Source: an uncultured Alphaproteobacteria bacterium (GTDB lineage: Bacteria > Pseudomonadota > Alphaproteobacteria > Rs-D84). From it: DNA of 64,000 nt. Below are positions 2,351 to 50,897 of the stretch, piece by piece. How positions within the stretch are numbered: position 1 is the stretch's first letter; each line of letters begins with the position of its first letter. The notes below the pieces were generated by a model. That model was not told where the DNA came from, made no database searches, and worked only from the letters and a program-made list of their open reading frames with translations. Where the stretch lies: NCBI GenBank assembly GCA_944389135.1, contig CALXLG010000005.1:1532-65531 (forward strand), given 5' to 3'. The translations under genes were made by a program, and so were the position numbers.

Positions 2351-3457
2351 TTATTTGGTGGTACTATTTGTTTGAGAATTTTGATATTTACCGCATTCTT
2401 GTAATATACGACTTCTTTCTGCTTGTATTTTCTGAACCAAAGAATCGTAATCATCAGCTTTGGGGGTTACACGTGTTCCATCTGATTTTACACATGTATT
2501 ACCAGAGCGGGTATATCCGTTTATACAACCCCAATTCCAACAGAAATGTTCTGTATCTGGCGTATAATCAATGTATTCGTCAATTCCAGATTGTGGTAAG
2601 ACATTATCACATATACGAATTTCGCATTCTGGCGCCCAAAAGTCGTCTTTCCATAAACCACTCCACCAACCGGATTTTTCCCCAGTCCAAGTATCACTTT
2701 TATTCATATTGCCTTGGACGCATTGGCGTACTGCTGGTTTGAATATTGCCTCGGTCCCATCTTGTTGGGTTTTGCTGCAGAACATATATTCACCAATATC
2801 TGCATATCGTTCACCCTGGTTAAATTGTGTATGACAACAAGTAAATTTGCCCGTAACAGGGTCATATAAACAATCTGTTTCTGAAAACAACTGAGAGCCT
2901 GCAACAAGCCCCCCCACCAGTGCACCTGATGCAACTGTTATCGCATATGCTAATTGACCAACCCCCACAAAAGCGTTTACCCCCGCTGCACCACTAGCTG
3001 CGGCTATTCCTCCACCAATAGCTCCTTGAACTACATCGCCCCAAGAATGTTCTTCTTGACCAGCTGTCGCATTTACAACCATGGCAGTTCCACTTGCTAC
3101 GCCTAATGCAGCACCCGCAACTTTGCCGGCCTTGGATAATTTACTAGCAGTACTAGTTGTGTTTTTTGGCCCAGAGGTATTCCCAGGGGGATTCCCGGGG
3201 GTGTTTCCAGGGGTGTTGCTGGGGGCGTTCCCAGGAGTTGTGTTTGGTGTATTAGAAGTGACTTCGTTCCAGGGCTGTGGCATACCTTGTATGTTTATTC
3301 TTCTGCCTGTTACACCATCGCGCCAAGCTTGGTCAGAAATGCTCTGAACTGGTATAACACCAGGGTCGTTCCAATTTAATGCAGTGGCACAATTGGCATA
3401 AAACATAACTGCAATAATACTAACAGCAAAACGTCCAAGCTTTTCGTAGCGTTTCAT
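2351..3457 (-). CDS. Exported protein with PGN repeats, glycine-zipper-like helices and Cys-rich C-terminus
   Basis: 368-aa ORF; signal peptide; GAALGVASG/GAIGGGIAAASG/GALVGGLVAG; multiple Cys. Confidence 0.85.
   Translation of the reverse strand: MKRYEKLGRFAVSIIAVMFYANCATALNWNDPGVIPVQSISDQAWRDGVTGRRINIQGMPQPWNEVTSNTPNTTPGNAPSNTPGNTPGNPPGNTSGPKNTTSTASKLSKAGKVAGAALGVASGTAMVVNATAGQEEHSWGDVVQGAIGGGIAAASGAAGVNAFVGVGQLAYAITVASGALVGGLVAGSQLFSETDCLYDPVTGKFTCCHTQFNQGERYADIGEYMFCSKTQQDGTEAIFKPAVRQCVQGNMNKSDTWTGEKSGWWSGLWKDDFWAPECEIRICDNVLPQSGIDEYIDYTPDTEHFCWNWGCINGYTRSGNTCVKSDGTRVTPKADDYDSLVQKIQAERSRILQECGKYQNSQTNSTTK
3171..3255 (-). repeat. Degenerate 12-bp tandem repeat encoding (T/A/P)PGN units
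   Basis: TPNTTPGNAPSNTPGNTPGNPPGNTSG; locally GC-rich. Confidence 0.6.
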
Positions 3458-4936: not shown

Positions 4937-5503
4937 ATGAGCAAGGGTTGGGATAACGCAACATTAAAAAAATTAAAGGCTTTGACTGGGAAAGGACTGT
5001 CTACGTCAGAAATTGGCAAACGTTTAGGCATGTCTAAAAATGCTGTTGTAGGTAAGCTAAATCGTATGGGGTGGAATTCTAAGGCAGGTGGCGTTGCAGC
5101 AACAGAAACTAAAAAAACATCTAAAAAAACAGAAGACAAGAAAAGTTTGGTAAAAAAAGTTGCCGAAAAACTGCAGAAAAAGAAAGCTGCACCAAAAGTG
5201 GATGCAAAAAAAGTTTTACCAAAGAAAAAAGTAGAAAACAAAAAAACTGTCGCAAAAGCAGAAAGCAAAAAAAGCCCAGCAAAAGATACAAAAACGTTGA
5301 ATAAATCTTTGGCAATGCACCAACGTATAATTCAACATTCGTTGGAAATGGCAAATTTGAAACCGAATCAGTGTCGCTGGCCAATTGGTGATCCTGATTC
5401 TGAAAATTTTCATTTTTGTGGTGAACAGGTTTTTGTTGGGAAACCTTATTGTTATGAGCATTGTAAACAAGCGTATCAGTTTACACCACCTAAAAAGAAG
5501 TAA
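4937..5503 (+). CDS. gcrA: GcrA cell-cycle regulator
   Basis: N-terminal GLSTSEIGKRLGMSKNAVVGKLNR; C-terminal CRWPIGDP..FHFCG...PYCYEH. Confidence 0.9.
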   Translation: MSKGWDNATLKKLKALTGKGLSTSEIGKRLGMSKNAVVGKLNRMGWNSKAGGVAATETKKTSKKTEDKKSLVKKVAEKLQKKKAAPKVDAKKVLPKKKVENKKTVAKAESKKSPAKDTKTLNKSLAMHQRIIQHSLEMANLKPNQCRWPIGDPDSENFHFCGEQVFVGKPYCYEHCKQAYQFTPPKKK

Positions 5504-8194: not shown

Positions 8195-8271
8195 CGGGGT
8201 GTAGCTCAGCCTGGTAGAGTACTTGCATGGGGTGCAAGGGGTCGCAGGTTCGATTCCTGTCACCCCGACCA
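8195..8271 (+). tRNA. tRNA-Pro(GGG)
   Basis: CGGGGTG acceptor stem, anticodon arm CTTGC-ATGGGGT-GCAAG, GGTTCGATTCC T-loop, 3' CCA. Confidence 0.95.
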
Positions 8272-8462
8272 AAAATAAAGAAACGCCCGCAGTGGCGTTT
8301 GTTTATTTTTGTATGGGTATTACGGAAATCAACATCGCATACGCAGTATGCCCAGGTTCGACAATGAGTAGATTTGACAAGCGTTGCGCAGTCAAATCGT
8401 TAGGAATGCCCCACAGCCGGCACCATTTTGTGCCGTGCGAGGGAATCCTGTCACCCCGACCA
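8272..8462 (+). repeat. 191-bp tRNA-linked unit ending in a duplicate of the tRNA-Pro 3' end (RtT-like)
   Basis: Terminator-like hairpin, internal hairpins, then tcctgtcaccccgacca identical to the tRNA 3' end. Confidence 0.8.
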
Positions 8463-21808: not shown

Positions 21809-21833
21809 AAAAACGCCAATTTGGCGTTTTTTT
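21807..21833. terminator. Bidirectional terminator (tolA/rnpB)
   Basis: aaaaaaacgccaa-t-ttggcgttttttt. Confidence 0.8.
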
Positions 21834-22157
21834 AACAGAAGCACTATAAGCCGGATTCTGTTCTGCCAAGGTCCAGTTTGTTCAACCAAACCAAGGTAGC
21901 GAGCATAATTAATCTGCATAATGTGTTACCACAAGATGTCAAGCCTTCTACCCGTTCCCAACGAGGGACTGCGTATAGGGAACCTATTTGAAGTTGCTGC
22001 GCATAGAGATTGCCCGTTTCACTCGAATTAAATCGTTTACGTCACTGTTGCTCTAATCGTCGGATTACTCCGCTCGGTAAATTAGCCGATATGCTGTCCC
22101 AAGCAGTCCGGACTTTCCTCCGCCTAATATAAGACGGCTATGCTCTGTGCTTCTGTT
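21834..22157 (-). ncRNA. rnpB: RNase P RNA
   Basis: Minus strand has GAGGAAAGTCCGG and AACAGAATCCGGCTTAT conserved regions; P1 aacagaagcac/gtgcttctgtt. Confidence 0.93.
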
Positions 22158-48078: not shown

Positions 48079-48354
48079 ATGAATGAAAAGCGTCAAAGTT
48101 TTAATAAATATAAAGAAGGCAAAACAGATTTAGAATCAAGCATGGAAAATTTGATTGCATTACTGTCTTCTTTAGAATCTAGTGCAAAATTATGTGGCAG
48201 TTTTATAATTGCGCGACAGGTAGAACAGCTAAAACGGGCTGCAATAAAAAACAATGGTAATAAAAAAATATTAAAATCCATTCGTGCTAAATACGAAACG
48301 TATAAGCAACAAGTACAAGAACTAGAATACGCTAAGAAGCAAAGAATAAAATAA
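48079..48354 (+). CDS. Small hypothetical protein (basic C-terminus KKQRIK)
   Basis: 91 aa, 2 nt after the LysM gene, followed by a terminator. Confidence 0.65.
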   Translation: MNEKRQSFNKYKEGKTDLESSMENLIALLSSLESSAKLCGSFIIARQVEQLKRAAIKNNGNKKILKSIRAKYETYKQQVQELEYAKKQRIK

Positions 48355-48379
48355 AAAGGGGCCCCGCCCTTTTTTATTT
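48350..48379. terminator. Bidirectional terminator
   Basis: aataaaaagggg-ccccg-ccctttttta. Confidence 0.65.
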
Positions 48380-48762
48380 TGGTGCGGGCGAAGGGAATGT
48401 ATAATTCCCTGCCGAAATCAATCCAATCGTATGATATACTCTTGGTGATTTCGGCGGGTCCCTTTCACTGCGCGCAAATGCGCTACGTTCCGAACCCTCT
48501 GTGTCGGGTTCTATTCCGTCGCCGACAAAGCCAAAAAACAAAAGCCAACACAAGGTTGGCTTTATTTTTTTGGTGCGGGCGAAGGGAATGTATAATTCCC
48601 TGCCGAAATCAATCCAATCGTATGATATACTCTTGGTGATTTCGGCGGGTCCCTTTCACTGCGCGCAAATGCGCTACGTTCCGAACCCTCTGTGTCGGGT
48701 TCTATTCCGTCGCCGACAAAGCCAAAAAAACAAAAGCCAACACAAGGTTGGCTTTATTTTTT
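48380..48762 (-). repeat. Two tandem 191/192-bp tRNA-linked units, each ending in the 19-nt tRNA-Gly 3' end
   Basis: tggtgcgggcgaagggaat at 48380, 48571 and 48763; the two units differ only by A6 vs A7. Confidence 0.92.
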
Positions 48763-48836
48763 TGGTGCGGGCGAAGGGAATCGAACCCTCGTCTTCAGCT
48801 TGGGAAGCTGACGTGCTACCATTATACCACGCCCGC
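48763..48836 (-). tRNA. tRNA-Gly(CCC)
   Basis: Reverse complement GCGGGCG...TCAGC-TTCCCAA-GCTGA...GGTTCGATTCC...CGCCCGCACCA. Confidence 0.95.
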
Positions 48837-50450: not shown

Positions 50451-50897
50451 ATGGCAACAGTTATTAGATTAGCACGCTTTGGTGCAAAGAAACGTCCTTA
50501 TTACCATGTGGTTGTTACAGATTCTCGTAACGCACGTAATTCTGGTAATGTTTTAGACACAGTTGGTAAATACGACCCAATGCAACCAAAGGGTAGCGAA
50601 AAGCGCGTCGTTTTAAAAATAGATGCAGTTAAAGAATGGATGGCAAAAGGTGCAAAACCATCTGACCGTGTTTATAAATTCTTAGCTAATGCGGGCTTGG
50701 TTGAAAAGAAACCTGTTCCTGTTCAAACAAAGAAACATTTACAGTCTGAAAAAACTTTGATGAAAATCAAAGACAAACAAGAAAAATTGGCTAAAATAGC
50801 TGAAGAAAAAGCCGCCGCAGAAGCTGCTGCAAAGGCTGCTGCAGAAGCACCAGCTGAAGAACCAGCTGCGGAAACAACAGAAGCTGTCGCTGAATAA
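50451..50897 (+). CDS. rpsP: 30S ribosomal protein S16
   Basis: IRLARFGAKKRPYY, GAKPSDRV. Confidence 0.96.
   Translation: MATVIRLARFGAKKRPYYHVVVTDSRNARNSGNVLDTVGKYDPMQPKGSEKRVVLKIDAVKEWMAKGAKPSDRVYKFLANAGLVEKKPVPVQTKKHLQSEKTLMKIKDKQEKLAKIAEEKAAAEAAAKAAAEAPAEEPAAETTEAVAE

Follow-up and report, generated by a model that had tools for sequence, protein, structure and literature searches.

Tandem repeat units behind tRNA-Gly of an uncultured alphaproteobacterium resemble the TLRs of E. coli and may be gene-less mobile DNA cassettes

A 64,000-nucleotide stretch of an uncultured Alphaproteobacteria bacterium (GenBank assembly GCA_944389135.1, contig CALXLG010000005.1, positions 1,532 to 65,531; hereafter the window) carries two nearly identical units in tandem directly behind a tRNA-Gly(CCC) gene. 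We consider that these units, with their many relatives across the genus, are tRNA-linked repeats (TLRs) of the kind found in E. coli (TLR/RtT) and act mainly as non-autonomous, gene-less DNA cassettes, mobilized in trans and multiplied by recombination, a reading to which we give a probability of roughly 55%. The TLR family itself is already known, and the units are a variant of it with core swapping, a split between G57 and A58, turnover and DNA-type loops. TLRs have been known since 1978 and, according to excerpts of PMC8144298, a function was still lacking in 2021. The genus offers what E. coli lacks, i.e., many core types, swaps between tRNAs, population copy-number differences and a candidate nuclease, and the question of RNA or mobile DNA thereby becomes directly testable. 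If the DNA reading is true, bacteria would carry a class of gene-less elements aimed at tRNA loops, and short tRNA-end duplications of this kind should not be taken for phage att scars. The features of the Gly locus, all on the minus strand, are the following (positions in the window).

48763..48836, minus strand: intact host gene, tRNA-Gly(CCC) (ARAGORN; Rfam tRNA, 67.6 bits)
48571..48762, minus strand: unit 1, 192 bp, TLR/RtT-like, with a W-type core (tandem-repeat call and sequence)
48724..48762, minus strand: intrinsic-terminator hairpin of unit 1, stem 48755-48733, directly 3' of CCA (terminator search and folds)
48697..48714, minus strand: antisense arm of unit 1, an imperfect copy of the tRNA T-arm and acceptor 3' strand (folds and sequence)
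48682..48690, minus strand: sense copy of the T-stem 5' strand in unit 1, GAGGGTTCG, to G57, the left junction of the core (sequence)
48590..48681, minus strand: exchangeable W-type core of unit 1 (sequence and family alignments)
48571..48589, minus strand: tail copy of unit 1, 19 nt, A58 to CCA76 (sequence)
48380..48570, minus strand: unit 2, 191 bp, equal to unit 1 minus one T (TRF and sequence)
48506-48523, minus strand: antisense arm of unit 2 (sequence)
48399-48490, minus strand: core of unit 2 (sequence)
48380-48398, minus strand: tail copy of unit 2 (sequence)
48348..48379, minus strand: final bidirectional terminator hairpin, common to the convergent ORF 48079-48354 (terminator search)

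The original prediction of a 191/192-bp tandem at tRNA-Gly with a one-A difference is borne out by ARAGORN, TRF (period 191, 2.2 copies, 98% matches) and the sequence, the sole difference being one base in a T run (an A on the plus strand). The 19-nt end of the tRNA gene is found in three places (48763-48781, 48571-48589 and 48380-48398), and the 9-mer GAGGGTTCG of unit 1 recurs inside the gene at 48782-48790. All predicted sub-parts were located, i.e., the terminator hairpins, the antisense arm and the paired motifs gaaccc/gggttc, gcgc/gcgc, gccgaaatca/tgatttcggc and agggaat/attccct; the last of these, proposed as a pseudo T-arm, is present but represents only one of two folds, as its GGG pairs with an upstream CCC across 40 aligned cores of the W type. 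The core of unit 1 consists of a weak GCA triloop, GAAAGGGACCC, a long variable hairpin (48602-48646) and GGGAATTATAC. The antisense arm, mismatched at the T-loop G, has alternative partners in the predicted folds, pairing either with the tail of its own unit or, when unit and gene are folded together, with the T-arm and acceptor strand in the tRNA 3' half, whereby the terminator grows to one long imperfect hairpin. Folded alone, the unit reaches a z-score of -6.0 against shuffles as DNA and of -5.9 as RNA, the latter with the arm paired to the tail, and none of 200 shuffles was as good in either case. The surroundings are unremarkable: ORFs for a LysM protein and for a 91-aa product flank the units on one side and one for a Glu/Leu/Phe/Val dehydrogenase on the other, with no cognate integrase in or beside the units. 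The hairpin at 48348..48379 probably represents the terminator native to the empty site, given that a contig of another metagenome (run X9, see below) joins the flank to the tRNA-tail end. Elsewhere in the window, a bacterial class A RNase P RNA (Rfam, 182 bits) lies at 21831-22156 on the minus strand, and TRF reports short tandem repeats of period 12-27 at 3170-3235, 5227-5285 and 50798-50848, the last within the Ala/Glu/Lys-rich tail of ORF 50451-50897.

That such units form a family, as had been proposed together with a scan of tRNA genes for 3'-end duplications, is evident from the source genome (G000; 987 kb, 98.5% complete) and from the genus as a whole. In the source genome, the end of the gene is repeated exactly, over 14-20 nt and 117-208 nt downstream, at 11 of 45 ARAGORN tRNA genes; tRNA-Gln and tRNA-His carry mixed arrays (A-B-A and A-B-A-B, respectively) and tRNA-Val(TAC) a degenerate unit. 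A pattern for the W-type core of the Gly units, with a gap shorter than the long hairpin of the source genome itself, matched in 60 of 101 genus genomes (control, 0), and a 17-nt motif of a second core type, Y, in 87 of 101 (reversed control, 6 hits). Among 31 Y-core matches inspected, 21 are situated at most 900 nt behind an intact tRNA and most others behind orphan tRNA tails. For the W-type, 80 of the 125 matches in the genome collection were considered, 60 of which have an intact tRNA upstream, representing 17 isoacceptors. Records with the W-type core are mostly Candidatus Enterousia or Alphaproteobacteria MAGs, and most runs containing the stretch derive from metagenomes of the chicken gut or of other guts. 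An Enterousia-like W unit with a Tyr-type tail also occurs on L197, a contig labelled as Bacteroides fragilis that is possibly from a misassigned bin.

The window holds a further unit behind tRNA-Pro(GGG), on the opposite strand.

8195..8271, plus strand: tRNA-Pro(GGG) (ARAGORN, Rfam)
8272..8462, plus strand: single 191-bp unit behind tRNA-Pro(GGG), with a Y-type core (sequence)
8446-8462, plus strand: exact 17-nt tail copy of the Pro unit (sequence)

This unit does measure 191 bp and carries the five predicted short motifs in the same order. Selection on length, which had been concluded from this agreement, does not follow, as 74 distinct units span 69-229 bp and the similarity between the Gly and Pro units (54% identity) is within the range of 200 shuffles (48+-3%, maximum 56.5%). 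Given the different core types and a likeness no greater than shuffles allow, we regard the equal length as a coincidence.

All units follow the order terminator, antisense arm, GGTTCG, core and A58-CCA76 tail. Among the 74 distinct units, the exact duplication is 19 nt long in 32 and 19-21 nt in 44, and the last 19 nt match the host tRNA within two changes in 58. The T-loop TTCG precedes the tail copy in only one of the 74, and thus a pseudo T-loop is divided by the core at G57^A58. Cores are swapped among tRNAs, with left part and tail remaining specific to the host: in the 12 closest pairs of cores at different amino-acid tRNAs, the cores are 86-91% identical and the left parts 50-70%. The predicted match of each unit to its host is upheld by the tails, cognate at the end of 48 of the 60 W loci with an intact upstream tRNA, and by the antisense arm, which favors the cognate tRNA. 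By duplex energy, its own tRNA is the best partner of the arm in 15 of 51 cases and one of the three best in 24 of 51; the median share of non-cognate tRNAs that do as well is 7%, against 53% in a 5'-half control. Counting Watson-Crick pairs only makes for a weak test, in which the cognate tRNA is strictly best in 12 of 74, the acceptor-only part is non-discriminating (7 of 74), the Pro unit of the window ranks 17th and the Gly units tie with five others.

Selection on structure, the other part of that prediction, finds support in covariation. In the W hairpin, 112 of 136 cells are paired (79 in shuffles), in the Y stem 124 of 126 (98 in shuffles), and RNAalifold of 40 W cores gives six pairs, three of them changed on both sides; one of the three anchored tests, that of the last Y hairpin, failed (19 of 48 paired, 17.4 in shuffles), with its anchor out of register.

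Splits at G^A are also seen on the 5' side of tRNA genes, i.e., at the D-loop (Leu) and the anticodon loop (Ser) in 5' copies. Upstream of tRNA-Leu(TAG), at about 99842-100120 (minus strand) of contig C3 of the source genome, two 140-bp units are present in which the tRNA 5' part is split at the D-loop G^A by a core of ~80 nt, a core that also occurs in His and Trp units. The anticodon loop of tRNA-Ser(TGA) is split similarly in partial 5' copies upstream of intact genes (L205 and L225).

The original prediction presented these units as a candidate family, the novelty of which is not supported, given that their layout is that of the E. coli TLR/RtT. According to excerpts of PMC8144298, E. coli has 22 TLRs at ten tRNA/rRNA loci, with 1-5 per locus, an 18-19-bp end equal to that of the upstream gene and no known function; they include the 178-bp tyrT repeats, or rttR (Egan & Landy 1978 and Rudd 1999, as cited in Stenum et al. 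2021, PMC8144298). As in TLRs defined in this way, the two units here lie directly behind tRNA-Gly, and both have an exact tail of 19 nt, the modal length among the units. By our own comparison, for which there is no published criterion, the internal layout is shared too. The tyrT repeats and the lysQ TLR both run in the order of the units, with an antisense arm whose mismatch lies at the T-loop, GGTTCG/GGTTTG, C-GNA-G triloop hairpins and a tail that resumes at the 3' side of the T-loop; in tyrT, GGTTCGAC follows the arm, the C-GNA-G hairpins number three and the tail measures 19 nt. The lysT/W/Y/Z TLRs are shorter and devoid of the antisense arm motif. What sets the present units apart from those of E. 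coli are several core types that can be exchanged, turnover at the level of populations, and forms that are inverted or lie on the 5' side. The units are not members of the Rfam family RtT (RF00391), as their core sequences differ: its one match in the source genome falls on the Arg(CCT) unit (17.4 bits, E 0.43; cut-off 45 bits), and the Gly units had only chance hits, with no Rfam family at gathering score or E-value.

The nature of the folded molecule can be approached through the loops, for which 46 cores, from units clustered at 85%, were compared with 60 dinucleotide shuffles. C-GNA-G triloop hairpins occur 48 times in the tRNA sense and never in antisense (shuffle mean 9.6, maximum 16), in 41 different contexts and with all four middle bases; the 178-bp tyrT repeats of E. 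coli have three each. According to excerpts of PMC13037366, such mini-hairpins have a much higher stability in DNA than in RNA and are present at ssDNA origins and promoters. C-GNRA-G tetraloops are not enriched (6 vs 6.7 in shuffles), nor is UUCG (0), and GNRA loops with any closing pair show a moderate enrichment (43 vs 25). Tandem-GA motifs were found 23 times in sense and three times in true antisense, the latter as stems in three 114-bp Gly units; a fourth antisense match (L114) was a mirror tRNA call and was dropped. An inverted module is present behind tRNA-Pro(TGG). Taken together, the GNA triloops, the tandem GA pairs and the occurrence in both orientations point to units that form folded single-stranded DNA. 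The limits of this reading are that the kin are not independent, that most units lie in the tRNA sense and that the units fold equally well as RNA; moreover, the Gly core of the window has one weak triloop only, the triloop signal coming from the family.

The same data bear on whether the units are instead functional RNA trailers, the main rival reading, which we hold to be possible though rather unlikely. The RNA fold of the Gly unit with its arm paired to the tail, the mostly sense orientation and the covariation, which suits RNA as well as DNA, would all agree with it. So would precedent in E. coli, where excerpts of PMC8144298 place the rrB repeat between the terminators T1 and T2, as a proposed RNase E signal, an arrangement matched by the terminator-unit-terminator layout here, and report that three TLRs behind 5S rRNA are transcribed with their operon and yield processed RNAs (RrA/B/F) that bind Hfq and CsrA. 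That these three follow 5S rRNA, which has no T-loop, also counts against the DNA reading. Against RNA trailers stand DNA-type triloops in fivefold excess with no excess of C-GNRA-G or UUCG, inverted modules, modules upstream of tRNAs, a terminator ahead of every unit and an erratic presence among relatives and populations.

Turnover of the units is considerable. By eye, 15 of 28 relatives with data have a unit at tRNA-Gly(CCC) (W, Y, 69-, 99- or 114-bp types), two have a small GIY-YIG gene, two other hairpins and nine nothing or a stump; at tRNA-Pro(GGG), a unit is present in 13 of 29. Contigs of four runs from four studies were compared over tRNA-Gly, one unit and the upstream flank. Depth over the Gly unit was 81.5 in run X3 (16.7-16.9 on the flank), 6.5 in run X10 (5.3 on the flank) and zero in runs X2 and X9. 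The hole in X2 proves nothing by itself, but in X9 the downstream flank (48339-48368, matched in 29 of 30 letters) is linked on one contig to the tRNA-tail end, and therefore the X9 population is without this Gly unit, the site being perhaps empty or occupied by another unit type; no go-back joint was seen in the contigs. Other populations would thus appear to have about 0, 1 and 5 copies at the Gly site, figures that are a suggestion and no count because depths sum over organisms, and the fivefold depth in X3 may derive from several of them. Variation in occupancy and copy number, among relatives and among metagenome contigs (one unit compared), is in this sense supported.

It could be argued that misassembly, or a local duplication that is neutral and without selected structure, accounts for the tandem, considering that its copies are nearly identical and that no contig was seen to bridge the pair in the comparison over one unit. 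We find this hardly credible in view of other tandem and mixed arrays in the source genome and its relatives, a unit at five times the flank depth in an independent study, and module patterns that match in 87 (Y) and 60 (W) of 101 genomes, the respective controls giving 6 hits and none. For the family, the neutral option is removed because the stems covary.

We postulate that, as TLR-type DNA cassettes, the units would propagate as follows. Their structures would form on single-stranded DNA, and a hairpin-recognizing nuclease or recombinase, supplied in trans, would cut tRNA loops at G^A. Copying of the core into the cut loop would duplicate part of the tRNA gene, such that one intact gene remains, and the terminator would protect tRNA expression. 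With a unit in place, the array would range from zero to several copies through ordinary recombination or slippage, acting on the 19-bp tails as well as on whole units, which suffices for the Gly tandem to arise without a special enzyme.

Integrative islands that target tRNA genes leave a direct repeat of the tRNA 3' end and a terminator behind the restored gene, and 14-21-nt duplications of this end are typical of their integrases. The units have such a repeat in common with integrase islands but are gene-less, measure about 190 bp, and have an antisense arm and no full T-loop repeat. The idea of non-autonomous integrative elements in the original prediction thus survives in that a DNA cassette is the best reading, without the suggested link to a tyrosine integrase. 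The source genome encodes two XerC/D-like proteins (by sequence) and a single P4-like integrase of 397 aa with an arm-binding domain, 13 kb from tRNA-Lys. Conceivably, a P4-type integrase could act in trans, integrating 190-bp circles at tRNA 3' ends, and the units would then be attP-only satellites or scars. Apart from the duplication length and the arm-binding domain, a slight surplus of modules in genomes with the integrase (4.8 vs 3.6, p=0.05) would favor this. We nevertheless consider it improbable, given that the P4-like integrase is found in 36 of 101 genus genomes and the Y module in 87, that none of 30 integrase loci has a tRNA or module within 1.5 kb, that TTCG before the tail is so rare, and that one integrase is ill-suited to at least 17 tRNA tails. 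Besides, some units stand behind short orphan tails, as if stranded when larger islands inserted, and no module was seen in phage or viral collections: blastn of the Pro unit against a phage collection gave no match, and in viral contigs the W pattern had no hits and the Y pattern 12, not one of which came with a tRNA or with the other parts of the module.

No RT, IS110 or Y1 transposase was found in the 98.5% complete source genome. Four resolvase-family matches are present, none of them at units. Serine-recombinase genes (about 490, 510 and 200 aa) adjoin tRNA ends at tRNA-Gln(CTG) on contig C11, tRNA-Gly(TCC)/Tyr on C1 and tRNA-Lys(TTT) on C3, which suggests that islands in this genome use serine rather than tyrosine recombinases.

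For the DNA cassettes, the best lead to the trans-acting enzyme is a group of small tRNA-linked GIY-YIG nucleases. A gene of this kind, of ~80 aa, is present in 60 of 151 genomes. From the best 30 loci, biased toward a Gln-linked query, 28 ORFs of ~80 aa were obtained; 25 open with a hairpin right behind a tRNA-type CCA, 20 are within 400 nt of an intact tRNA and six are then followed by a TLR-type end motif. At one locus (L078, G006:C15:105641-106156), the cassette is inserted at the GGTTCG^ T-loop junction of a partial tRNA-Pro(GGG) copy, the junction at which the cores of the units also begin; behind the cassette, the upstream bases recur, together with the complete tRNA-Pro(GGG) gene. The GIY-YIG cassettes bear a hairpin of their own, different from that of the units. 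The tRNA-linked query had no match in the source genome, whose two GIY-YIG genes are both away from the Gly units. Numbers of extra GIY-YIG genes correlate weakly with module counts (rho 0.29, n=81, the kin not being independent), and of the 81 genomes, the 23 that lack both an extra GIY-YIG gene and the P4-like integrase still have 0-7 modules. Cassettes of ~80 aa with their own double hairpin right behind a tRNA CCA are seen at L046, L049, L062, L064 and L314-L343, and the cassette hairpin alone follows tRNAs or units at L032, L071, L090, L097, L101 and L184.

Precedent for such an enzyme exists in the Ssn GIY-YIG nucleases, which cut NTS/SRM hairpin repeats as ssDNA, the Ssn-SRM pair being likened to IS200/IS605 and REP systems (Chenal et al. 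2025, excerpts of PMC11893778). The units are likewise short structured repeats, as are SRM/NTS and, by analogy, the repeats of REP/RAYT, but unlike SRM they lack a GTC-tagged palindrome (by inspection), and the Gly locus has no GIY-YIG gene. The main text of PMC11893778 has no mention of tRNA, a survey of REP (PMC3733652) none of GIY-YIG, and in the literature searched we found no description of TLRs as mobile DNA. A mobilome paper (10.1101/2024.07.17.603846), in the parts available, records raised coverage of tyrT/rttR and ascribes its RNA-gene signal to RNA/DNA hybrids. As a speculation, and one more doubtful than the cassette reading itself, TLRs including the E. coli RtT might be non-autonomous partners of a hitherto undescribed class of ssDNA-based mobile elements that insert at the G^A of tRNA loops, moved in trans by the ~80-aa tRNA-linked GIY-YIG protein; the antisense arm would fold the 3' half of the tRNA into the substrate and thereby serve each cassette as a targeting guide. 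At L034:1417-1737 (minus strand; about 75.2-75.6 kb on contig C4 of the source genome), a GIY-YIG gene of 106 aa has inverted GTCATTCCCGCG-type palindromes behind it, an arrangement that resembles an Ssn/SRM pair and recurs frequently in the genus.

The units might also be kept by the host as decoys, i.e., spare folded copies of the T-arm and CCA that absorb elements or nucleases aimed at tRNA genes. A core-less 30-bp duplicate of the T-arm (L073), a stereotyped tail change (L006, L076, L085 and L090) and the way in which recombinase islands and GIY-YIG cassettes concentrate at tRNA ends here speak for it, but the islands often sit between the intact gene and the unit, outside the spare tail (the orphan-tail cases), and conserved exchangeable cores would be unnecessary. 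We regard this as quite improbable and, like the RNA-mimic option, as less favored than DNA cassettes. In distal tail copies, the acceptor part shows a stereotyped change rather than random decay (also at L181, L046 and L048), which may block re-use of the site.

Two further loci of the source genome concern larger segments at tRNA genes. Behind tRNA-Met(CAT), a 4.7-kb segment (contig C1, 24607-29294, minus strand) comprises a decayed module and ORFs of 317 and 1073 aa; it has no integrase, is closed by a copy of the tRNA tail and is possibly a cargo-carrying unit. The 3' half of tRNA-Asn occurs on two contigs (C6, 1266-1341, and C22, about 31349) with similar downstream sequence, a pair that resembles both ends of a larger integrated element.
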